This document shows, one piece after another, positions 4,694-34,038 of a stretch of DNA of 40,462 bases (the stretch's first letter is position 1; every line of letters starts with the position of its first letter). Under the pieces are notes generated by a model. That model had not been told where the DNA came from. It did not search any database and was given only the letters and a program-made list of their open reading frames with translations. The stretch is taken from contig VMFR01000001.1 in NCBI GenBank assembly GCA_007376135.1, forward strand, positions 336,554 to 377,015. The letters are read 5' to 3'. The position numbers and the translations under genes are program-made. The stretch comes from Parcubacteria group bacterium Gr01-1014_31. Its GTDB lineage: Bacteria > Patescibacteriota > Patescibacteriia > Buchananbacterales > GWA2-38-13.

Positions 4694-4830
4694 TACCCTA
4701 TCATAATACCGACAGAATGAATATAAAAAATACGCTATCGTTACCGATCATATTATTACGATTCCTTTCCCTCACTACACTTACAAAAAATGCTCTCATG
4801 GAAATCCACAGCACTCACAATTTGAAACAC

Positions 4831-4861
4831 AAAAAAGCCCCTGGGATTTTGGTCCTGGGGC
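4831..4861 (-). terminator. Rho-independent terminator of the zinc-finger mini-gene
   Basis: On the - strand: GCCCCAGGACCAAAATCCCAGGGGC followed by TTTTTTGTGTTT. Confidence 0.65.
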
Positions 4862-4880
4862 TGCGGCTCGGGTTTTCGGC

Positions 4881-5102
4881 TCACCACTTACCGTTTTTCG
4901 CTATCGTGCTAATTACCTCATCGAGCTTTTCTTCTTGGCATTGCCTTGAACAAAAGCGACCGTTGACAGTGCCATCGCGACGATAGCTAACGATGCTTGT
5001 GTCGCCCTTCTTGAGACGCTGACAGCAATGTCCGCATGCAGAAGGCTTTTGCAACACCTCTTCCCCGACCCTGAAAAATAGTCGTCGCACGTCCTTCTTC
5101 AA
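4881..5102 (-). CDS. Small (73 aa) FCS/MYM-type (TRASH-superfamily) zinc-finger protein
   Basis: C-x2-C ... F-C-S-x2-C pattern (CGHCCQRLKKGDTSIVSYRRDGTVNGRFCSRQC). Strong SD AAGGAGGGAGGGAT directly before the TTG start. Its own hairpin plus U-tract terminator at 4831-4861. G/C at about 40 of 73 third positions (hand count), clearly lower than in the neighbouring genes. Confidence 0.6.
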   Translation of the reverse strand: MKKDVRRLFFRVGEEVLQKPSACGHCCQRLKKGDTSIVSYRRDGTVNGRFCSRQCQEEKLDEVISTIAKNGKW

Positions 5103-5175
5103 ATCCCTCCCTCCTTATAAAGAACCATTATTGCTGCGGCGCGACCACAATGGTAGCGGAAAACACGCAACGTAT

Positions 5176-5204: not shown

Positions 5205-5229
5205 ATTGGAAAAAGCTTTCCTACTTTTG

Positions 5230-6663
5230 TTATAGGTTCCAGGTTTCACGTTTCATGATAAGGTCGCGCACTTTGTACACGTCGCCGGCACCCATGGTGA
5301 CGACCACGTCGCCGGGCTCCAGGTACGGCGCCAGGTGCTCGGCGGTTTGCTGCAGCGTGCCGGAAGCGCGCGCCGCTTCGTGGACCTCGCTGATGGCCGC
5401 GGCCAGATCGCGAGTCGCGGTCGGGTCAGTGGCTTCGCGAGCCGACGCGAACAGGTCGGCAACCAGCACGCGATTGGCCGGCGCGAACGCTTTCGCGAAC
5501 TGCGGCATCAGCGCGCGCGTCCGTGACGCCAGGTGTGGCTGGAACACCGCCCAGATCTTTTGCTGGGGGTAGCGCTCGCGGATGGCCTCCAGCGTGCGGG
5601 CAACCTCGGTCGGATGATGGCCATAGTCGTCCACGAACGTCACGCCGCCCGCGGTTATGGTTTCTTGGCGGCGGGAAAGTCCCCGGAACGACGACAGGGC
5701 GGAGGAAAACGCCGAAATATCCAACCCCAATTCCAGGCAAACAATAAGCGCGGCGGTGGCATTCAACGCATTATGGCGGCCCAGCAACGGACTGGCAAAC
5801 TCCGCAAGTTTCTTGCCGCCGCGACTGACCGTGAAACGGCTGCCTTCGGGCGTAAGTCGAAAATCGCTGACCGTAAAGTCGGCGTCCGCGCTGCCGCCGT
5901 AGCGAATGACCTGGTCGCCCGACTTCACCGCTTTCACGACGGACGGCCAGTCGGCGCACGCCACCACCGGTCCGCGCGTTTTTTTCACCAGCGCGGCGAA
6001 GGTTTGCTCCATCGTCCGCACGTCGGGGTAGATATCCACGTGCTCCCACTCCAAACTGGTAATGATGGACGCCCATGGGTTGAGGTCCAAAAATTTGGCG
6101 TCGTGGTCGGCCTGGCTCTTGGCGTACTCGTCGCCCTCGACGATAAAAAGCCCGCCGCGACCCCAGTGCGCGCTCGCCCCTAACCCCATGATCGCCGGCG
6201 CGCCCACGAGATAGCCGGGGTCCATGCCCGCCTGCGTCAGTACCCAAGAAAGCAACGCCGTGGTCGTACTTTTACCGTGTACGCCCGTTACCGCCACGGT
6301 CTTTCTCTGCCGCGAGAGAAATCCGCGAACGTCGGAGTCGTTCATCATCAAAATCCCCTGTTCCCTGGCTGCCCGCACTTCGGGATTGGCATCGGTCCAC
6401 GACGCGCCCACCACCACCACGTCGGGTTTCGAAATTAGATTTTTACTGGCAAAACCCTGGCTGACGGCGATACCGGCTTCCCGTAGTTCATTTTCGGTCG
6501 CAAAAAAATCCTCGGTATCTGAACCGCGGACTTTTTTTCCCTGCTCCTGGAGGATGAGCGCAAGGCCTGCCATGGCAACACCTTTGATGCCAATAAAATA
6601 CACGCTCAAGGCTTTCGCCAATGCGTTGTCATTCTTGACATTCCCCTTCTTTTGTGGTATCAT
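5230..6663 (-). CDS. murC: UDP-N-acetylmuramate--L-alanine ligase
   Basis: YFIGIKGVAMAGLALIL (N-terminal Rossmann domain), GVHGKSTTTALLSWVL (Mur ligase P-loop), DDYGHHPTEV. Confidence 0.9.
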   Translation of the reverse strand: MIPQKKGNVKNDNALAKALSVYFIGIKGVAMAGLALILQEQGKKVRGSDTEDFFATENELREAGIAVSQGFASKNLISKPDVVVVGASWTDANPEVRAAREQGILMMNDSDVRGFLSRQRKTVAVTGVHGKSTTTALLSWVLTQAGMDPGYLVGAPAIMGLGASAHWGRGGLFIVEGDEYAKSQADHDAKFLDLNPWASIITSLEWEHVDIYPDVRTMEQTFAALVKKTRGPVVACADWPSVVKAVKSGDQVIRYGGSADADFTVSDFRLTPEGSRFTVSRGGKKLAEFASPLLGRHNALNATAALIVCLELGLDISAFSSALSSFRGLSRRQETITAGGVTFVDDYGHHPTEVARTLEAIRERYPQQKIWAVFQPHLASRTRALMPQFAKAFAPANRVLVADLFASAREATDPTATRDLAAAISEVHEAARASGTLQQTAEHLAPYLEPGDVVVTMGAGDVYKVRDLIMKRETWNL

Positions 6664-7038: not shown

Positions 7039-8104
7039 ATCCGTCGCCGCCCAATCGCCGCACTAGGTCCGCGACCGCGGCGGCCGCCTGCGGCGGCAGC
7101 ATCTTACTGATGTTGCGGCCGAGATTCGCCAGCAGCGGCTTGTCTTCGATGATCTCCTTCACTTTCCCGGTGAAGTCGGCTTGCGTCAGACCGGTCTGGG
7201 ATACAATGATGGCCGCATTATTCCTCGCGAACGTGATGGCGTTGGCCACCTGGTGACTGCCGGGGATGGGGATGAGCGCGGCCGCTTTCCCCAGCGATCC
7301 CAACTCCGAAAGCACTCCCATGCCGGCGCGCGACACCACCAGGTCGGCGGCGGCGTAAGCCGCCGACAGCTCCGCGCCGAGGAATTCGAACGCCCGGTAG
7401 CGCGGGTGCTCGGCGACCACTTCCATCTTGCCGCGGCCGGTGAGGTGGATGACCTGGCAGAACTGCACTAAGTCGTTGAGACTGTCCCACACCAGGCGGT
7501 TGAGCGCCGAAGCCCCCGTGCCGCCGCCCAACACCAGCACGATGGGCACGTCCGGCAAAAAGCGGAACAGCTCAAGCGCGGCTGCGCGCTCGGTCAGCTG
7601 ACGGTCGGCGCGCACTGGATTGCCGGTGACCGTGGTTTTGTTGGCGGAAAACGCGGTCAGGCTGGAGCTGAACGCCACGGTGATCGCCGAGGCGAACGGC
7701 GCCAAGAGCTTGTTGGTCAGGCTGGGAGTAACGTCCTGCTGGTGGATGAGGCTGGGAATTCTCTTGGTGCGCGCTGCCAACGCCACGGGAACGGCCACGA
7801 ACGAGCCGGCCGACACCACCACGTCCGGCTTGAACCGCTTTATCACGGCGCGGGCCTGCAGGATGCCGTACGGCAGCGTGAACGGTAACAGCAGCGTCCG
7901 CCAATCCCAATAGCGGCGCAGCTTGGGAGCGCTGACGGTCGTGAACGCGATACCCTGTTCGGCGATGATGTCGCGCTCCGGACCGTCCTTGGTCCCCACC
8001 CACAGCGCGTCCACCTGGCGACCCTGCTGCAAGAGCATCTGGTGCACGGCCAAAAGCGGGCTGACTGAGCCCAAGGTCCCCCCGCCGGCGTAGATGATGC
8101 GCAT
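7037..8104 (-). CDS. murG: Undecaprenyldiphospho-muramoylpentapeptide beta-N-acetylglucosaminyltransferase
   Basis: MRIIYAGGGTLGSVSPLLAV (G-loop), VLVLGGGTGASALN; GT28 N- and C-domain layout. Confidence 0.9.
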   Translation of the reverse strand: MRIIYAGGGTLGSVSPLLAVHQMLLQQGRQVDALWVGTKDGPERDIIAEQGIAFTTVSAPKLRRYWDWRTLLLPFTLPYGILQARAVIKRFKPDVVVSAGSFVAVPVALAARTKRIPSLIHQQDVTPSLTNKLLAPFASAITVAFSSSLTAFSANKTTVTGNPVRADRQLTERAAALELFRFLPDVPIVLVLGGGTGASALNRLVWDSLNDLVQFCQVIHLTGRGKMEVVAEHPRYRAFEFLGAELSAAYAAADLVVSRAGMGVLSELGSLGKAAALIPIPGSHQVANAITFARNNAAIIVSQTGLTQADFTGKVKEIIEDKPLLANLGRNISKMLPPQAAAAVADLVRRLGGDG

Positions 8105-8142
8105 AGTGGAGAAGCAAGAATCAAGAAGTAAGAATCAAGGGG
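8105..8142 (-). promoter_or_regulatory. CT-rich conserved upstream element (copy 1), immediately 5' of murG
   Basis: Minus-strand reading: CCCCTTGATTCTTACTTCTTGATTCTTGCTTCTCCACT-ATG. Contains an internal direct repeat CTTGATTCTT x2. No SD. Confidence 0.5.
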
Positions 8143-8198
8143 TCATCGACATCGATATTCTTGATGCTGGATACTTGATACTCAATACGACGATTCCC

Positions 8199-13180: not shown

Positions 13181-14929
<1,749 letters not shown>

Positions 14930-15040: not shown

Positions 15041-16162
15041 ATGGAGGGTTTACGAGCGGCCGCTGTTGAGCCGTCAAAACCAAGAAATCCATTTTCCCTC
15101 ATCGCCAAGCTGCGGGGGAAATTTGCGCGTATACCGGTTGCGCAAAAGCTCTTCCTGGTGCAGCAGCTCTCCATCATGGTCAAGACCGGGATCTCGCTGG
15201 CCGTGGCCCTAAAAACCATCGCCGAGCAGACCGGCAACAAGACCCTGAAAGTGGTGCTGTCCGACGTCCAGCACGAGGTGGAGCGCGGCAACACGTTCGC
15301 CAAGGGTCTGGAACGCCACCGCGCCGTCTTTGGCGACCTGTTCATCAGCATGATCGCGGGCGGCGAGGCCTCGGGCAAACTGGAGGAGGTGCTTAACCAG
15401 CTTTTCATCCAGCTCAAGCGCGACCACGCGCTGGTCGCCAAGGTGCGCGGCGCCATGATCTACCCGGCCGTTATCATCGTCGCCATGATCGGGGTCGCCA
15501 TCCTGACGATGATCTTCGTCATCCCGAACCTTTTGACCATCTTCGAAGAAGTGGACGTGCCGCTGCCGCTGGCGACGCGCATCCTCATCGGCATCAGCAA
15601 CGGCCTCACCTCCTACGGGATATTCGTCGTCCTCGGGCTGGCGCTCCTAATCACGGTCTTCGTTCGGATCGTGCACCTGCCCGGCGGGCGCTACGCGTAT
15701 CATTGGCTGCTGCTGCGCCTGCCGGTTGCCGGCGTCATCATCCGCAAGATCAACATCGCCCGCTTCTGCCGCACGTTCTCCTCGCTGCTGAAGACCGATA
15801 TCGCCATCATCCGCAGCTTCGAGATCACCGCCGACGTCGTCGGGAACGAACTCTACCGGCGGCTGCTGCGCGAGGCCAAGGAAAAGGTGAAGCGCGGCCT
15901 CAACATCAAGGAATCGCTGACGTCCGATATGCAGCTGTTCCCGCCGGTGGTCCTCCAGATGGTCGCGGTCGGCGAGGAGACCGGCGCGCTGGACAACGTG
16001 CTGGAGGAATCGGCGCAGTTCTACGAGAACGACGTCGACCAGACCATGACCACCCTGCCGTCGCTGATCGAGCCCATCCTGATCGTGGTGCTGGGCCTGG
16101 GCGTGGCCGGCATGGCCATGGCCGTCATTATGCCAATGTACTCCATCAGCCAGAACATCTAA
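15041..16162 (+). CDS. pilC: Type IV pilus platform protein PilC/GspF, full length
   Basis: Two GspF repeats (FISMIAGGEASGKLEEVLNQL and VLQMVAVGEETGALDNVLEESAQFY) with 3 TM segments. The stop is immediately followed by the next ATG at 16163. Confidence 0.9.
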   Translation: MEGLRAAAVEPSKPRNPFSLIAKLRGKFARIPVAQKLFLVQQLSIMVKTGISLAVALKTIAEQTGNKTLKVVLSDVQHEVERGNTFAKGLERHRAVFGDLFISMIAGGEASGKLEEVLNQLFIQLKRDHALVAKVRGAMIYPAVIIVAMIGVAILTMIFVIPNLLTIFEEVDVPLPLATRILIGISNGLTSYGIFVVLGLALLITVFVRIVHLPGGRYAYHWLLLRLPVAGVIIRKINIARFCRTFSSLLKTDIAIIRSFEITADVVGNELYRRLLREAKEKVKRGLNIKESLTSDMQLFPPVVLQMVAVGEETGALDNVLEESAQFYENDVDQTMTTLPSLIEPILIVVLGLGVAGMAMAVIMPMYSISQNI

Positions 16163-18406
16163 ATGGAAATTTCGAAATTCGAAATTCGAAATTCGAAATT
16201 TCCGGTGGGTTACACCCTCCTGGAAACCATCCTAGCGATCGCCATCATCGGCACGCTGGTGGTCGGCGTGCTGTCCGTGTTCAATTACGCCCTGGCAGTC
16301 ATCGCCGAAACAAAGGCGCGCACCGGAGCCATCACCCTGGTGGAACAGCAGCTGGAGATGGTGCGCAATCTCCCCTATGACGCCATCGGAACGGTCGGCG
16401 GCATCCCGGCGGGAACCCTGCCGCAAACCGAGACCCTGAACCTCAACAACATCAACTACACGATCGCCATCCAAGCCGTCTACTTCGACGACCCGTTCGA
16501 CGGAACGGTGGGCGGGACGCCCAACGACCTGCTGGGCAACGACTATAAAAAGGTCCGTGTCGCGGCGACCTGGAAAGGACGGTTCTCGGAAAAAACGTAC
16601 GTCGGGCTCACCGTCGTTGCCCCCAAGGGCGTCGAGACGAACGCCGGGGGCGGCACGCTGTCCATCCTGGTGTTCGATGCGGGCGGCGCGCCGGTACCCC
16701 AGGCGGACGTAACGGTCGTCAACAGCCTGGTCAACCCGCCGGTCAACCTCGCCGTGCAAACCGACGCGACGGGCCGCTACCTGCTGCCGGGGGCGCCCGC
16801 CTCGGTGAACGGCTACCAAGTCACCGCGACCAAGGCCGGTTTCAGTACGGACAAAACCTGCACGACCGACCCGGCAGGCGCGGGCTGCAGCGGCGCCATC
16901 GGCAACCCGACGCCGACCAAACCGCACGCCACCGTCATCGCGGGGCAACTGACCGATATCAGTTTCGCCATCGACCGGCTTTCCACCATGGTCGTACAGA
17001 CCATCCGCCAACCCACCCCCGGCGACTGGGTCATCAACACGGGCGGCAACGGTTTTGACCAAGACAACCCGTCGATTGCCCTGTGCCCGAACGGCAACTA
17101 TCTGTTCGTCTGGCGCGATGCCCGGCAGAACAACAACCCGCGCATCTACGCCCAGCAGTACACACCCGCCAAAACGCCGGTCTGGAACCCCGATCTGGCC
17201 ATTACCACGTCCAACAACCAGAACAACCCGGACGTACAGCCGGATGCCAGCTGCAACATCTACTACGCGTGGCAGGATGACCGGAATGGCAACCAGGATA
17301 TCTATTTTGACAAATATACGTCCGGCGGCACGGACGCCTGGACCGACGCCAAAAAGGTGGATGTGGTTGCGCAGAGCGCCGACCAGACCTACCCGCAGGT
17401 CGTCGTCAACGCCAGCTCGACGTACGAATACATCGTCTGGCAGGACGCAGCGGCGGACCTCGGCGACATCTACGCCCAAAAATTTGACACCGACGGCAAC
17501 CCGGTGTGGGGCAGCGAAGTCAGGATCAACTCCGACGTCGGCGCGGCCGCACAATCCCTGCCGGTCGTTGCGTTGGACCTGGACGAGAACCTGCTGTTCC
17601 TGTGGCACGACAACCGGGACGGCCACAACGATATTTTCAGCCAAAAATTCTCCAAGGACGGCGTTCGCCTGTGGTCGCCGGACAAAAAGATGAATACCGA
17701 CGGTGGCACGACCGAACAGATCAGCCCGGCCTTCACACTTGATGCCAGCGGCGTGTTCTACGCGGCGTGGGAGGACAGCCGCAACGGGGACAGCGACATC
17801 TTCGCCCAGCGATATGACGCCAACGGGGTCCCCCAGTGGGCGCAAGACGTGCGCGTCAATACCGACACCGGCACGGCCAACCAGGGCGACCCCTCCATTG
17901 CGCTCTCGGGCAGCGGGACGCTGGTGATCGTCTGGGAGGACCACCGCAGCGGCACCAACGACGTCTACCTACAGCAGCTGGATAGCAACGGCACCAAACT
18001 GATCCCCTTCGACACGCGGGTGAACAACTCGACGAATGGCGAGCAGGAGAATCCCGAAGTGACCCTGAATGCCAGCGGCAAGATCGTCGTGGTCTGGCAG
18101 GACAACACGGACGGCAATTTCGACATCCGCGCCGCCATCTACGACGAGGATCCCCAGACCATTACGCCGGTCGCGAATGTGCCGTTCACGCTCCGGGGAG
18201 CCAAGCGCATCGGGGAAAACCCGGTCATCAACAAATACGTGCAAACGCACACCACCGACGGCAGCGGTATAATCACCATTTCCGACCTGGAATGGGACAA
18301 TTACACGCTGGTGCCAACGGGGTATACCCTGCAGCGCTCCGAACCCGTGCAGCCGGCAGCGCTGAACCCCAACACCACACTGACAGTCATCCTCAATCTG
18401 GAGTAG
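16163..18406 (+). CDS. Giant (747 aa) PilV-like prepilin fused to beta-sandwich domains and a predicted 7-bladed PD40/TolB-like beta-propeller
   Basis: MEISKFEIRNSKFPVG|YTLLETILAIAIIGTLVVGVL. CarboxypepD_reg-like segment TLSILVFDAGGAPVPQADVTVVN...TDATGRYLLPG. Seven ~55-aa repeats with the pattern W.D.R.G..DIY.Q.Y (aa ~298-662). Confidence 0.8.
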   Translation: MEISKFEIRNSKFPVGYTLLETILAIAIIGTLVVGVLSVFNYALAVIAETKARTGAITLVEQQLEMVRNLPYDAIGTVGGIPAGTLPQTETLNLNNINYTIAIQAVYFDDPFDGTVGGTPNDLLGNDYKKVRVAATWKGRFSEKTYVGLTVVAPKGVETNAGGGTLSILVFDAGGAPVPQADVTVVNSLVNPPVNLAVQTDATGRYLLPGAPASVNGYQVTATKAGFSTDKTCTTDPAGAGCSGAIGNPTPTKPHATVIAGQLTDISFAIDRLSTMVVQTIRQPTPGDWVINTGGNGFDQDNPSIALCPNGNYLFVWRDARQNNNPRIYAQQYTPAKTPVWNPDLAITTSNNQNNPDVQPDASCNIYYAWQDDRNGNQDIYFDKYTSGGTDAWTDAKKVDVVAQSADQTYPQVVVNASSTYEYIVWQDAAADLGDIYAQKFDTDGNPVWGSEVRINSDVGAAAQSLPVVALDLDENLLFLWHDNRDGHNDIFSQKFSKDGVRLWSPDKKMNTDGGTTEQISPAFTLDASGVFYAAWEDSRNGDSDIFAQRYDANGVPQWAQDVRVNTDTGTANQGDPSIALSGSGTLVIVWEDHRSGTNDVYLQQLDSNGTKLIPFDTRVNNSTNGEQENPEVTLNASGKIVVVWQDNTDGNFDIRAAIYDEDPQTITPVANVPFTLRGAKRIGENPVINKYVQTHTTDGSGIITISDLEWDNYTLVPTGYTLQRSEPVQPAALNPNTTLTVILNLE
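16166..16202 (+). repeat. Tandem heptanucleotide repeat GAAATT(T)C x5 in codons 2-13 of the giant pilin gene; also a 12-nt-arm inverted repeat
   Basis: GAAATTTC GAAATTC GAAATTC GAAATTC GAAATTTC. Inverted-repeat arms GGAAATTTCGAA (16165-16176) and TTCGAAATTTCC (16192-16203). An AT-rich island in GC-rich DNA. Confidence 0.9.
17054..18148 (+). repeat. Seven tandem ~55-codon propeller-blade repeats inside the CDS 16163-18406
   Basis: LFVWRDARQNNNPRIYAQQY / YYAWQDDRNGNQDIYFDKY / YIVWQDAAADLGDIYAQKF / LFLWHDNRDGHNDIFSQKF / YAAWEDSRNGDSDIFAQRY / VIVWEDHRSGTNDVYLQQL / VVVWQDNTDGNFDIRAAIY. Confidence 0.75.
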
Positions 18407-18409
18407 CCT

Positions 18410-19027
18410 ATGCCCCGCCTTCCCCGCCGCGCCCCCGCCGGATTGACCATCCTTGAGATCGTCATTGCCATCGCGATCTTCACGACCGCGACCCTGATCA
18501 TCGCCGGCTACATCGTCCAGGGCTACCGCGTCAACCGGTTTGCGATGGAGCAAGCCGACGCGCTCGAACACGCGCGCCGCGCCATCGACAGTATGGCCAA
18601 AGAGATCCGCGAAGCCGACATTTCCGACCTCGGCAGTTTTCCCATCGCCTCGGCGACCAACCAAAGCTTTTCTTTCTACAGCAATCTGGACGGCGACAGC
18701 GCAGTGGAAAAGATCCGCTATTTCCTGGAAGGCACCGATTTTAAAAAGGGGGTCATTGAACCGGGCGGCAACCCGCTGGCCTATAACCCTGCCGGCGAAA
18801 AGATCACCATCATTTCCCGCTACGTGCGCAACGGAGCCGACCCCATCTTCAACTATTACGACGGCAACTACCCCAGCTCCACCGCTCCCTTGGCGGCGCC
18901 GGCCAACCCCAACCAGGTAAAACTTATCCAACTCAGCTTGCGGGTCAATATCGACCCGAGTACCGCCCCGGACGACCTGACCCTGAACACGTTCGTGCAG
19001 ATACGGAATTTGAAAGACAACTTATGA
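18410..19027 (+). CDS. Prepilin-type minor pilin, PilW/GspJ-like
   Basis: RRAPAG|LTILEIVIAIAIFTTATLIIAGYIV. SD CTGGAGTAGCCT before the ATG. The stop overlaps the next start (ATGA at 19024-19027). Paralogue of 1736-2260. Confidence 0.75.
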   Translation: MPRLPRRAPAGLTILEIVIAIAIFTTATLIIAGYIVQGYRVNRFAMEQADALEHARRAIDSMAKEIREADISDLGSFPIASATNQSFSFYSNLDGDSAVEKIRYFLEGTDFKKGVIEPGGNPLAYNPAGEKITIISRYVRNGADPIFNYYDGNYPSSTAPLAAPANPNQVKLIQLSLRVNIDPSTAPDDLTLNTFVQIRNLKDNL

Positions 19028-20511
19028 TATTTCGAAATATCAAAATATCGAACTATCGAGATATTAGGGATGGTTCGATCCTGGTATCGACCCTGGTGTT
19101 TTCTTTCATCTTCCTGATGATCGCGGGCGGCCTGCTCGGGTTTGTCAGCCAGCAACGCAAACTGTCCCTATCGCGGCAGGCGCAACTGTCGGCGCTCATG
19201 ATCGCCGAGGCCGGCGTTAACTACTACCGCTGGCACCTCGCACATACCCCCAACGACTATGCCGATGGCAGCGGACAGACCGGCTGCAACCCGTGTGGAC
19301 CGTACGTGCACAACTTCACCGACCCTTCCGGCACGGTCTTGGGCAGCTATAGCCTGCTCATCACTCCCCCGCCCCAAGGTTCCACCATCGTCAAAATAAA
19401 ATCGTCGGGTTCCAGTATCGCCAATCCGTCGTTGCAACGGCATGTCGTGGCCCGCTACGGCCGTCCATCGCTGGCGGCCTACGCCGTTGTGGCCGACGCC
19501 AACCTGCGATTCGGCGTGGGCACGACGGTCCATGGCCCCTTGCACTCCAACTATGGCATCCGCTTCGACGGGTTGGCCTACAATGTCGTCTCAAGCTATC
19601 AAAATACCTACACCGACACCGATTCGGACGCCTGCACCGCCAATTCGTGGGGAGTGCACACCTGCGTCAGCCCCGCCGACCCGTCCCCGAATACGCCGGC
19701 GCAAACGCGGCTGGACGTATTCGCAGCCGGCCGGCAGTATCCCGTACCCCAGGTGGACTTCAACGCCATCACGGTCAACCTGGACCAGCTGCAGGACCTG
19801 GGTAACGCCGCGGACGGTTCCTACTTTAACCCGTCCAACCAGCAGGGCTGGCACATCCAGTTCCTGGGCAACGGCACCTATCGCTACCGCAAGGTCAAAA
19901 CCACCCGCACCTGCACCTACGGCGACCCGGAGGTGACGGTGGCGGTCGGCGACGTGTACGCCTATCAGGGCAACTGGGCAACGACCGCGTTGCCCGCGAA
20001 TGGTATAATCTTTGTGGAGGACAACGCCTGGGTGGACGGCACGCTGCAGAGCGGCGAACGCATCACGCTGGTCGCTGCCAAGGAACCGCTCGCGTCCGGC
20101 AACGCGACCATCTGGGTCAATAACGACATCCTCTACACCGTGCAGGACGGCACGGCAGCACTCGGCTTGATCGCCCAGAAAGACATTTCGGTCGGGCTGT
20201 TCAGCGAGGACAATCTGGAGATCAATGCGGCGCTGCTGGCACAAACCGGACGCGTGGGACGCCCGTACTACCCTTCCGCCTGCAGCCCATCGTACTACCT
20301 GCGCGACACCATCACCGTCTACGGGTCCATCGCCACGAAGCAACGGTACGGCTTTGCGTGGGTCTGCGGCGGCGCGCCCTGCTCAGGCTACGGCGTCCGT
20401 AACCTCAATTTTGACGGCACCATGACCTACACGCCGCCGCCGTCATTCCCCACGTCGGGCGAATACCGGTTCATTTCCTGGGAAGAAGTACTCAGCAACG
20501 AAATTTACTGA
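19024..20511 (+). CDS. PilX-like pilus-associated protein with a large extracellular domain
   Basis: N-terminal anchor GSILVSTLVFSFIFLMIAGGLLGFV followed by LMIAEAGVNYYRWHL (compare AGAETGIEEALYRL in 2267-3610). C-terminal ISWEEV motif shared with DTWEER of the paralogue. Confidence 0.7.
   Translation: MIFRNIKISNYRDIRDGSILVSTLVFSFIFLMIAGGLLGFVSQQRKLSLSRQAQLSALMIAEAGVNYYRWHLAHTPNDYADGSGQTGCNPCGPYVHNFTDPSGTVLGSYSLLITPPPQGSTIVKIKSSGSSIANPSLQRHVVARYGRPSLAAYAVVADANLRFGVGTTVHGPLHSNYGIRFDGLAYNVVSSYQNTYTDTDSDACTANSWGVHTCVSPADPSPNTPAQTRLDVFAAGRQYPVPQVDFNAITVNLDQLQDLGNAADGSYFNPSNQQGWHIQFLGNGTYRYRKVKTTRTCTYGDPEVTVAVGDVYAYQGNWATTALPANGIIFVEDNAWVDGTLQSGERITLVAAKEPLASGNATIWVNNDILYTVQDGTAALGLIAQKDISVGLFSEDNLEINAALLAQTGRVGRPYYPSACSPSYYLRDTITVYGSIATKQRYGFAWVCGGAPCSGYGVRNLNFDGTMTYTPPPSFPTSGEYRFISWEEVLSNEIY
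19026..19041. repeat. Perfect 16-bp palindrome GATATTTCGAAATATC in codons 1-6 of the PilX-like gene
   Basis: Self-complementary by inspection. Shares the 10-bp core ATTTCGAAAT with 16168-16177 at the 5' end of the giant pilin gene. Further half-site-like copies ATATCGAA and ATCGAGATAT follow. Confidence 0.85.
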
Positions 20512-23233: not shown

Positions 23234-23257
23234 GCGCCGCCGCGGCGGCGTTTTTTT
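23234..23257. terminator. Rho-independent terminator between the convergent pilus operon and the NifU-like gene
   Basis: GC stem CGCCGCC/GGCGGCG followed by T7 on the + strand; A3 precedes the stem. Confidence 0.75.
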
Positions 23258-32945: not shown

Positions 32946-33353
32946 TTACCGCAATGCGGCCGCAATGTCTTTTGCCAATCCCGCGCTTTCCTCGGGACCG
33001 TAGCGCTGGTGCGGCCAGGACTGCAACCCGTCGCCATCAATTCTCGGAATAAGGTGAAAATGGGTATGCATGACGATCTGTCCGGCGGCCGCGCCGTTAT
33101 TGATGCCGACGTTGAATGCCGGAGCATGCGTCACCCGCAACACCGCCGGGGCAATGACCTGCAGCGCGTCCATCATCGCGGACACCGTCTCGGCCGGGGT
33201 GGCCGCCAAGTCCTGAAAATGGAGCTTGGGCACGACCAAGACATGACCGCGGGAAATGGGCGCGATGTCCAAGAATGCGAGCACCGCGCCATTCTCATAG
33301 ACTTTGTCGCACGGGATCTGCCCGGCGATGATCTTACAGAAGACGCAATCCAT
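32946..33353 (-). CDS. HIT-family (histidine triad) nucleotide hydrolase/transferase
   Basis: MDCVFCKIIAGQIP...RGHVLVVPK...HTHFHLIPR. Confidence 0.9.
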   Translation of the reverse strand: MDCVFCKIIAGQIPCDKVYENGAVLAFLDIAPISRGHVLVVPKLHFQDLAATPAETVSAMMDALQVIAPAVLRVTHAPAFNVGINNGAAAGQIVMHTHFHLIPRIDGDGLQSWPHQRYGPEESAGLAKDIAAALR

Positions 33354-33391
33354 ATCGGGAAAGCAAGAAGCTAGAATATAAAATCAAGGGG
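33354..33391 (-). promoter_or_regulatory. CT-rich conserved upstream element (copy 2), immediately 5' of the HIT gene
   Basis: Minus-strand reading: CCCCTTGATTTTATATTCTAGCTTCTTGCTTTCCCGAT-ATG. 28 of 38 positions match the murG upstream element, ungapped and at the same distance from the ATG. Also contains GTGATT, 17 nt, TATATT. Confidence 0.5.
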
Positions 33392-33395
33392 GGAA

Positions 33396-33542
33396 TTAAT
33401 CACCTCCGACGTTCTCATCCCATTCATGCCCACAGTTCAAACAACGGTGGGTTAAATCATTTTGATATTTGACCGGCGCGTTACCTGGACGGTATTCGGC
33501 CATGGGGGTGATATTAGGGGAGCTACATTTTGGGCATTCCAT
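33396..33542 (-). CDS. Small (48 aa) zinc-ribbon protein
   Basis: MECPKCSSPNITPMAEYRPGNAPVKYQNDLTHRCLNCGHEWDENVGGD (CPxC...CxxC). Lies 19 nt downstream of the rmlC stop in an AT-richer stretch. No SD. Only the tail of the listed ORF 33396-33842 is credible. Confidence 0.45.
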   Translation of the reverse strand: MECPKCSSPNITPMAEYRPGNAPVKYQNDLTHRCLNCGHEWDENVGGD

Positions 33543-33561
33543 AGATGTGCTGAATAATTTA

Positions 33562-34038
33562 TTAATACTTGCTCCAGTCGAAATTGATCTTTTGGTCATC
33601 GTACGGTAACCGCTCTTCATCGGGATTTCCGGCGTTGTAGGCGCGCGTCGTGTGGTAGAACAGCAACACCGGATCATGGCCCAAAACTTTATAGCCATGC
33701 ACCACCCCGGCCGGAATGACAATGACCTTATAGTCATCCTTCCCGGCCCTGATGGTCTGGGTCTGGCCGAAGGTCGGTGAATCCTCCCGCTGATCGTAGA
33801 GCACGACCAGCGCCTGGCCATCCGCGACAAACCATACATCATCTTGTTGGCGGTGCCAGTGGAACGCTTTAATGGCGCCCGGATAGGTCACCGTGAACGT
33901 CGACTGGCCGAAACGGGACAACAATGCTTCATCATCGCGGATAACTTCCATCAAAAAGCCGGGCCGCGAGAGCACTTCGCGACCCTGGGCCTGATCGGGC
34001 CACACCTTTAACGTTTTGATCTTGACTCCATCAATCAT
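33562..34038 (-). CDS. rmlC: dTDP-4-dehydrorhamnose 3,5-epimerase-like cupin (short RmlC/SpsL-like form)
   Basis: HWHRQQDDVWFVADGQALVVLYDQREDSPTFGQ...VIPAGVVHGYKVLG. The true ATG is at 34038 (MIDGVKIK), internal to the listed ORF. Confidence 0.8.
   Translation of the reverse strand: MIDGVKIKTLKVWPDQAQGREVLSRPGFLMEVIRDDEALLSRFGQSTFTVTYPGAIKAFHWHRQQDDVWFVADGQALVVLYDQREDSPTFGQTQTIRAGKDDYKVIVIPAGVVHGYKVLGHDPVLLFYHTTRAYNAGNPDEERLPYDDQKINFDWSKY

Follow-up and report, generated by a model that had tools for sequence, protein, structure and literature searches.

The window analyzed here, a 40,462-nt stretch of DNA from Parcubacteria group bacterium Gr01-1014_31 (contig VMFR01000001.1, positions 336,554 to 377,015), hosts a cluster of type IV pilus (T4P) genes, one of which carries a tandem array of heptanucleotides in its leader. 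We refer to this gene as the giant pilin gene (16163..18406, forward strand). The cluster forms an apparent operon that runs from pilB to a terminator-like site at 23235-23250, in the order pilB, pilC, giant pilin, GspJ-like, PilX-like, pilM, pilN and GspM/PilO-like. The pilB gene (T2SSE; 13181-14929) and the pilC/gspF platform gene (T2SSF; 15041..16162, forward strand) lie upstream of the giant pilin gene, which is directly followed by a gene for a GspJ-like minor pseudopilin (18410-19027) and then by the PilX-like gene (19024-20511). The presence of PilB, PilC, PilM and PilN on its flanks confirms the pilus-assembly context of the giant pilin gene. Among the open reading frames (ORFs) scanned, none encoded a prepilin peptidase.

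The giant pilin, a prepilin-like minor pilin of 747 aa, contains a CarboxypepD_reg domain together with beta-propeller repeats. The first 48 nt of the gene (16163..16210, forward strand) encode a 16-aa class III (prepilin) leader, MEISKFEIRNSKFPVG, with a predicted cleavage site after Gly16 (GGT, 16208-16210) and Tyr as the mature residue +1 (codon at 16211). Translation of the ORF returns MEISKFEIRNSKFPVG followed by YTLLETILAIAIIG, with YTLLE directly after the cleavage site. The protein therefore has the features of a prepilin, namely a leader ending in Gly (PVG, followed by YTLLETILAIAIIGTLVVGVLSVF), a hydrophobic residue at +1, Glu at +5 and a hydrophobic N-terminal helix. Its homologues carry PF07963 (N_methyl), and residues 16-65 gave a weak ComGE-like match. 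A preliminary description of this DNA had placed the repeat in a prepilin gene, and both the cleavage motif (G followed by YTLLE) and the pilus operon neighbors bear this out. The family, whose members are about 740 aa long, is conserved in Patescibacteria (Falkowbacteria, Parcubacteria and others); we collected 281 homologues, the closest distinct one being 89% identical to the protein of the window (P0121, encoded on a 539-kb contig). A search of PDB sequences with the giant pilin returned no match. We consider the giant pilin to be a minor pilin with an adhesin-like propeller, and we infer that it is probably located at the tip of the pilus.

The stop codon of pilC directly abuts the start codon of the giant pilin gene (TAAATG, 16160..16165, forward strand). 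From 16163 to 16213 the window reads ATG GAAATTTC GAAATTC GAAATTC GAAATTC GAAATTTC CGGTGGGT TAC, so that three perfect heptamers are enclosed by two octamer variants of the unit. The resulting array (16166..16202, forward strand) occupies codons 2-13 of the leader and the first base of codon 14, exactly as previously described. Tandem Repeats Finder reported it at 16166-16200 (period 7, 4.9 copies, 96% matches, score 61). A strict scan of the 40 kb credited it with 4.3 perfect copies of period 7 and identified it as the sole perfect array of period 7 or 8 with at least three copies; no such array occurred in 30 Markov shuffles of the window. The array exceeds the tandem length predicted from composition, as expected of simple sequence repeat (SSR) contingency loci, and reaches the threshold of at least three units applied to heptamers in PMC2651432. 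With five units in total, three of them perfect, its repeat number lies outside the hypermutable range. The unit GAAATTCGAAATTC was found in none of 99 fetched loci.

All three reading frames are open through the array. In simulations, the product shrank to 74, 21, 67 or 28 aa upon gain or loss of one or two units, and three-unit changes kept the frame. The truncation that the preliminary description had predicted for a one-unit change thus holds, with products of 74 or 21 aa. An in-frame GTG lies 3' of the array (16205..16207, forward strand) and may act as an alternative start that is immune to changes in copy number and would leave a leader of only two residues, MG. Leaders can indeed be very short in orthologues (MQG, MLMG, MHKG).

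The array had also been described as an AT-rich island in GC-rich DNA. The composition is confirmed, as the first 45 nt of the gene have 33% GC compared to 62% in the gene body. Gene starts in the window are generally AT-enriched (mean GC 53% versus 63%), with the leaders of the giant pilin and of the PilX-like gene (27%) as the extremes. However, the island is not unstructured, because a strong hairpin is predicted over the start codon. For this gene, we therefore rejected an unstructured AT-rich ramp as the cause of the AT island, since the tract is predicted to be over-structured. We also considered a cluster of methylation or restriction sites, given the four TTCGAA/TCGA sites, and set it aside, as the window shows neither a depletion nor an excess of TCGA or TTCGAA.

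The predicted RNA hairpin spans 16157..16210 (forward strand; folding of the 66-nt junction), with a core stem of 18 bp at 16164-16204. Its minimum free energy of -23.7 kcal/mol (z=-5.0) was not reached by any of 200 shuffled sequences. In the predicted fold, the base of the stem pairs the U and G of the AUG and an outer 5-bp helix takes in the first two bases of the pilC stop codon. The dyad reaches one base past the repeat on each side. When we compared the start regions of the nine T4P genes in the operon, over-structure was confined to the two genes with arrays (giant pilin, z=-5.0; PilX-like, z=-2.4), while the remaining seven ranged from z -0.24 to +1.9. For each of these two genes, the predicted stem starts at the UG of the AUG, a codon that directly follows the preceding stop in the giant pilin gene (TAAATG) and overlaps it in the PilX-like gene (ATGA). 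The two octamers at the ends of the giant pilin array restore the frame by extending it from 35 to 37 nt, and their two extra T's tie for the most stable among 40 frame-restoring placements. Slip variants of the array are predicted to keep the hairpin (-18 to -25 kcal/mol). No promoter-like site was found at 16166-16202.

A relaxed scan of the window detected four arrays compared to approximately 0.03 expected, all of them of period 7 or 8 and all at the 5' ends of genes. One is a degenerate octamer, (TCGAAATA)x4, at 19026..19064 (forward strand), which lies in the 17-aa leader of the PilX-like gene and contributes the hairpin that begins at the UG of its AUG; the same array is perfect, with 4.2 copies, in the locus L008 (GCA_030648715.1). 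Two further degenerate heptamer arrays (8110..8188, reverse strand; sense units of GTATCAA and CTTGATT type) fill the spacer between ftsW and murG up to the murG ATG (8104). The palindrome ATTTCGAAAT is common to the giant pilin array, the PilX-like leader and the 5' region of pilM. Allowing at most one mismatch, it occurs eight times in the window compared to 1.5 expected, with a concentration at these three gene starts, and it is found also at pilin-gene starts of L008, L010 and L011. The shared palindrome suggests that the giant pilin leader of the window was rebuilt from the PilX-type motif.

Other sequences of the window resemble these units. An element of about 45 nt, CCCCTTGATTyTTAyhTTCTwGmTTCTTGCTTyCC...TATG, composed of CTTGNTT heptads, occurs at 8104-8146 and 33353-33395 (both on the reverse strand), directly upstream of the ATG of murG and of a HIT-family gene. 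Its copies share about 80% identity, and this is apparently a dispersed 5'-leader element. The last eight codons and the stop of murC (5222-5250, reverse strand) read ATGAAAC GTGAAAC CTGGAAC CTATAAC, a degenerate heptamer array. Its unit family is shared with the CATGAAA array of the giant pilin leader in L008.

The leaders of 92 full-length orthologues of the giant pilin vary from 2 to 38 aa and are highly variable also in sequence. Several of them resembled translated heptamer repeats, and this was borne out on the DNA for every case fetched. The orthologue in L008 (89% aa identity) has three to four copies of CATGAAA followed by four of TGTTCCA; in its minimum-energy fold, one array is paired with the other. 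L089 and L090 carry AAAACGA x4 and TTTACRC x4, L010 a 14-mer x2, L011 a spacer with TAGCTTYT x3, and L097 NNNCGTT x6. TTCCAAG is present four times in L091, three times with a degenerate fourth unit in L096, and three times with a 1-nt insertion in L092. In L093-L095, 10.6 copies of GTTATGC/GTTACGA lie in the 5' untranslated region (UTR), with the start codon inside the last unit. Arrays were absent from nine of the 14 orthologue loci retrieved blindly, which have lower GC (33-54%; L001-L003, L012, L015-L018 and L048), and L013 and L014 have only weak two-copy repeats.

The comparison between the window and L008 shows where this variability is confined. Nucleotide homology of 86-90% ends exactly at the pilC stop codon and restarts at the mature codon +1, and the leaders in between, of 48 nt in the window and about 100 nt in L008, cannot be aligned. 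Since the arrays have no stop codon in any frame and frequently supply an ATG per unit, gene callers start the orthologues P0048, P0124, P0122 and P0080 inside or upstream of them, which makes the annotated N termini of the family unreliable. Start-codon calling in pilin genes of the candidate phyla radiation (CPR) is therefore affected by the arrays.

Arrays of this type are frequent in the loci of Patescibacteria. Perfect heptamer or octamer arrays with at least three copies occur 10 times in 170 kb of Patescibacteria loci and never in 362 kb of loci from other phyla, with relaxed criteria returning 31 and 9 arrays, respectively; the loci of the other phyla came from the same search. As a caveat to this comparison, a repetitive look of the leader was the reason for fetching some of the Patescibacteria loci. 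The distribution of periods has a sharp maximum at 7 and 8, and no array falls at 9-12. Gene calls were available for the loci of 25 arrays. Of these, 15 are intergenic (after reassignment of one apparent leader array that resulted from a read-through gene call at a contig end), nine lie in prepilin leaders, one at the extreme 3' end of a gene and none in the interior of a gene. The same unit families recur at several sites per genome, often as inverted pairs. Taken together, these arrays form an apparently undescribed, lineage-wide class of 7/8-nt tandem arrays at gene junctions of Patescibacteria.

In the inverted pairs, a unit array and, within the next 20-50 nt, an array of the reverse-complement unit together have the potential to form long imperfect hairpins in spacers (for example, L014 4833-4914 and 5558-5640, L090 266-363, and L011 6864-6957). 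Small genes similar to 23S_rRNA_IVP/bAvd adjoin the giant pilin gene in distant orthologues (L091 3887-4204, L092 1056-1454, L098 3831-4190). They are flanked by inverted heptamer or octamer arrays. A link with diversity-generating retroelements or with a processing stem of RNase III type is possible.

For a comparison of copy number, we found no conspecific sequence of the giant pilin array in the collections searched, and the relatives returned by a metagenome scan share at most 49% identity. An alignment of 13 sequences of the family was also used for searching. The exact protein is not on record elsewhere, and its 90% cluster comprises only P0121, P0001 and P0122. We therefore relied on related loci. 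L091 and L098 (GCA_030629775.1) differ by 6 single-nucleotide polymorphisms (SNPs) in 4.3 kb and by a single indel of 14 nt, corresponding to exactly two units of an ARCGNNN heptamer array (L091 3760-3815, L098 3760-3801) between the giant pilin stop codon and the bAvd/23S_rRNA_IVP-like gene. This spacer array is the sole direct copy-number change that we observed. Compared to L091, L092 has one TTCCAAG unit fewer, together with a compensating 1-nt insertion.

The remaining comparisons showed stable lengths. L089 and L090 share 77% DNA identity and have equal copy numbers in both arrays, and the TTCCAAG array stays at three to four units across a protein identity of 64%. A length of 17 aa is common to the PilX-like leaders of the window, L008, L010 and L011, and the copy in the window decays by substitution and not in length. 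Leaders are identical in P0086/P0127 and in P0080/P0128 (99.9% identical). Ten further clusters with at least 90% identity showed no leader-length polymorphism, the only differences being alternative start calls. Sequences of 38-47 aa listed as 'members' of the P0072 cluster proved unrelated, and L093, L094 and L095 are 100% identical and hence uninformative on copy number. As judged from these alignments, the arrays behave as indel-prone sequence and not as classical hypermutable tracts.

Constraint on the nucleotide sequence is detectable in one pair of relatives. The 38-codon leader is 93% identical between L089 and L090 (1235-1348 and 1501-1614, respectively), compared to 73% for the gene body, and contains two GC-rich hairpins besides the two arrays. 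At conserved residues, identical codons are used in 31 of 32 cases in the leader and in 288 of 518 in the body (p=4e-7, Fisher test). L091 and L096 show the same direction (8/9 and 268/458, p=0.09). The preliminary description had raised the case of orthologues that keep the leader peptide on non-repetitive DNA; what we saw is the opposite, as repetitive DNA is kept (TTCCAAG in L091, L096 and L092). This pattern of codon use indicates that the leader sequence matters as nucleic acid, at least in relatives.

Our preferred reading, which we hold tentatively, is that the giant pilin array is a cis element born by slippage, whose predicted start-occluding hairpin would throttle translation of the giant pilin and couple it to that of pilC. 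A microsatellite may have arisen by slippage between the pilC stop codon and the mature residue +1, in the cleavable leader, which is the sole stretch of the gene to tolerate nearly any sequence. Because the unit is nearly palindromic and the two octamer end variants make the dyad perfect, the mRNA is predicted to fold into the 18-bp hairpin. With the U and G of the AUG at its base, 1 nt past the pilC stop codon, this hairpin would block independent initiation. Ribosomes terminating at the pilC UAA would melt the 5' arm and become the main source of giant pilin translation, and such coupling may serve as a throttle for a low-copy component of the tip. The hairpin might also be cut as double-stranded RNA, as in the 5'-UTR of hmw (PMC12721329). 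Gain or loss of one unit would switch off the giant pilin, and probably the translationally coupled downstream genes too. Since there are only three perfect units, such a change is expected as a rare mutation, at a presumably low rate, and not as a programmed high-frequency switch.

Several points weigh against this reading. The hairpin is the result of in-silico folding. The placement of the extra T's could come from selection or from quasi-palindrome template switching, and the 2-of-40 ranking is only suggestive. The junction folds of relatives range from z -2.6 to +1.8, and TTCCAAG arrays are less structured than shuffled sequences. We therefore rejected the hairpin as a general property of the arrays, and hairpin formation cannot explain the whole class. 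Purifying selection was seen in the leader of a relative and not in the giant pilin array, which has no homologue, and the sharp preference for periods of 7 and 8 nt is not explained by a start-occluding hairpin.

The preliminary description favored a contingency design as in adhesin genes. In a true contingency locus, high-frequency slippage of the GAAATTC units would switch the tip pilin and, through polarity or uncoupling, the downstream pilus genes, giving the population a hedge against pressure from phages or the host. In its favor, the gene encodes a surface or tip component of a T4P system, changes of one or two units truncate this product to 21-74 aa with all frames open through the tract, and orthologues carry differing 7/8-nt arrays at this junction. 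The density of arrays is also far above that of the control phyla and of H. influenzae, where an equal threshold yields 0-4 heptamer and 0-1 octamer SSRs per genome (PMC2651432), and the array that differs by two units between L091 and L098 shows that related heptamer arrays can change by whole units. We nevertheless consider a contingency locus rather unlikely. As the preliminary description itself had cautioned, copy number is low: the three perfect units compare with 11-38, and with a minimum of 9-11, in the characterized heptamer phase-variable tracts (PMC12721329, PMC2651432), and fewer repeats mean slower switching (De Bolle 2000, listed in PMC11868660). Comparable leader arrays are length-invariant over 64-89% protein identity, some decay by point substitution, and the ten clusters described above show no variation in leader length. 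The array of L093 lies upstream of the last ATG and hence cannot shift the frame, and in the window the GTG at 16205 could leak expression. Moreover, a similar array precedes the essential murG and others lie in many spacers, which argues against a design specific to adhesin genes. Overall, the phase-variation interpretation is partly supported.

Slippage duplications could also simply pile up in the unconstrained leaders and spacers of a compact genome, in which case the array would be a neutral by-product and its hairpin an accident of the palindromic unit. The confinement of arrays to spacers and cleaved leaders, the hypervariable leaders of the 92 orthologues, the interruption of homology with L008 between the pilC stop and the mature residue +1, and the substitutions that erode the PilX-like array of the window relative to L008 are all in line with neutrality. 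Such an origin predicts neither the peak of periods at 7 and 8 with none at 9-12 nor the use of the same unit families at several loci within one genome. It is difficult to reconcile with the synonymous-site conservation of the L089/L090 leader and with the TTCCAAG unit kept between 64%-identical proteins, and a stem of -23.7 kcal/mol that covers a start codon probably has some effect on expression. We thus deem a purely neutral origin unlikely. Even less probable, in our view, is that a regulator of minor-pilin genes recognizes ATTTCGAAAT as an operator or RNA motif, with the array as a series of overlapping sites. The enrichment of ATTTCGAAAT at the giant pilin, PilX-like and pilM starts and its presence at pilin-gene starts of L008, L010 and L011 would be expected of clustered binding sites. 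However, L089 and L090 use other units and lack it, a distance of 7-8 bp between sites leaves dimeric DNA binders little steric room, and we found neither a candidate regulator nor a promoter-like site at the array. The start-occluding cis element and these three alternatives are not mutually exclusive.

The giant pilin array shares features with several known systems. The CTCTT repeats of opa and the poly-G tract of pilC in Neisseria are located in signal-peptide coding regions, have 7-28 units or at least 10 G, are perfect and vary between nearly all isolates. As in these genes, a unit whose length is not a multiple of three lies within a cleaved leader, where changes shift the frame and leave the mature protein unaltered. 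Unlike the long, perfect and demonstrably variable Neisseria tracts, the giant pilin array is short. Translational coupling through inhibitory structure at the start site is known from E. coli atpHA and from the coat and replicase genes of RNA phages. The giant pilin gene has the same arrangement of abutting stop and start codons (TAAATG) with the AUG in a predicted stable stem that a terminating ribosome would unwind, and differs in that its predicted stem is built from a tandem microsatellite. The leader conforms to class III signal peptides in its final Gly, aromatic +1, Glu +5, hydrophobic helix of about 20 aa and pilB-pilC-pilM-pilN cluster, while the mature protein departs from other such prepilins in its 731 aa and its beta-propeller.

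The hmw1A and hmw2A genes of H. influenzae, with their (5'-ATCTTTC)n tracts, likewise have a 7-nt unit near the start of a gene for a large surface adhesin (PMC12721329, PMC2651432, PMC8262952). The hmw tract is transcribed and forms a long RNA hairpin, which is a substrate of RNase III and acts as a cis-regulatory element; a long mRNA hairpin made of the repeat is also predicted here. The hmw tracts differ in that they lie in the 5'-UTR, have 11-38 units, pair with a separate G-rich arm, are of proven variability and grade expression inversely with repeat number, with no shift of frame. The giant pilin array has five units (three perfect), is self-complementary and lies in a coding leader, inside the ORF that starts at the ATG abutting pilC. 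Phase variation of opa is listed in PMC11868660.

T4P are central to host attachment and DNA uptake in CPR/Patescibacteria (PMC9894109, PMC11623550). A full-text search of the literature found no paper on phase variation or simple-sequence repeats in pilus genes of Patescibacteria; the sole paper found on 'hypervariation' in CPR concerns an in-frame 9-mer repeat (PMC6851277). It is conceivable, although we find it distinctly doubtful, that CPR genomes possess a 'phasome', in which dense hepta- and octanucleotide arrays at gene junctions, including the leaders of T4P tip and minor pilins, act as heritable stochastic switches or rheostats through unit changes and hairpins. Such a phasome would control the pili that episymbionts use for host attachment and DNA uptake, and the array of the window would represent one allele in the ON state. 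Should the arrays indeed tune or switch tip proteins of the pilus, they would represent the first described case of stochastic switching in this vast and mostly uncultured radiation. Even if no switching occurs, the contrast between 10 arrays in 170 kb and none in 362 kb, the confinement to junctions and the one synonymously conserved leader point to an unrecognized class of cis elements or to a mutational bias.

The window has 61% GC and also includes the dcw cluster genes mraY, murD, ftsW, murG, murC and murB. A search of Rfam over the whole window returned no match at the gathering score, and the window contains no tRNA or tmRNA. A 536-nt AT-rich gap between murC and murB hosts a Cys-rich ORF of about 75 aa (approximately 4880-5110, reverse strand) with a clear AAGGAGG Shine-Dalgarno sequence, followed by a terminator-like hairpin (4830-4850, reverse strand); most other genes of the window lack an obvious Shine-Dalgarno sequence. 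Finally, an ORF adjoining the HIT gene (33396-33842, reverse strand) has a weak, sub-threshold match to the Cas12f1-like TNB domain (E=1e-3) and is possibly a remnant of TnpB/IscB type.

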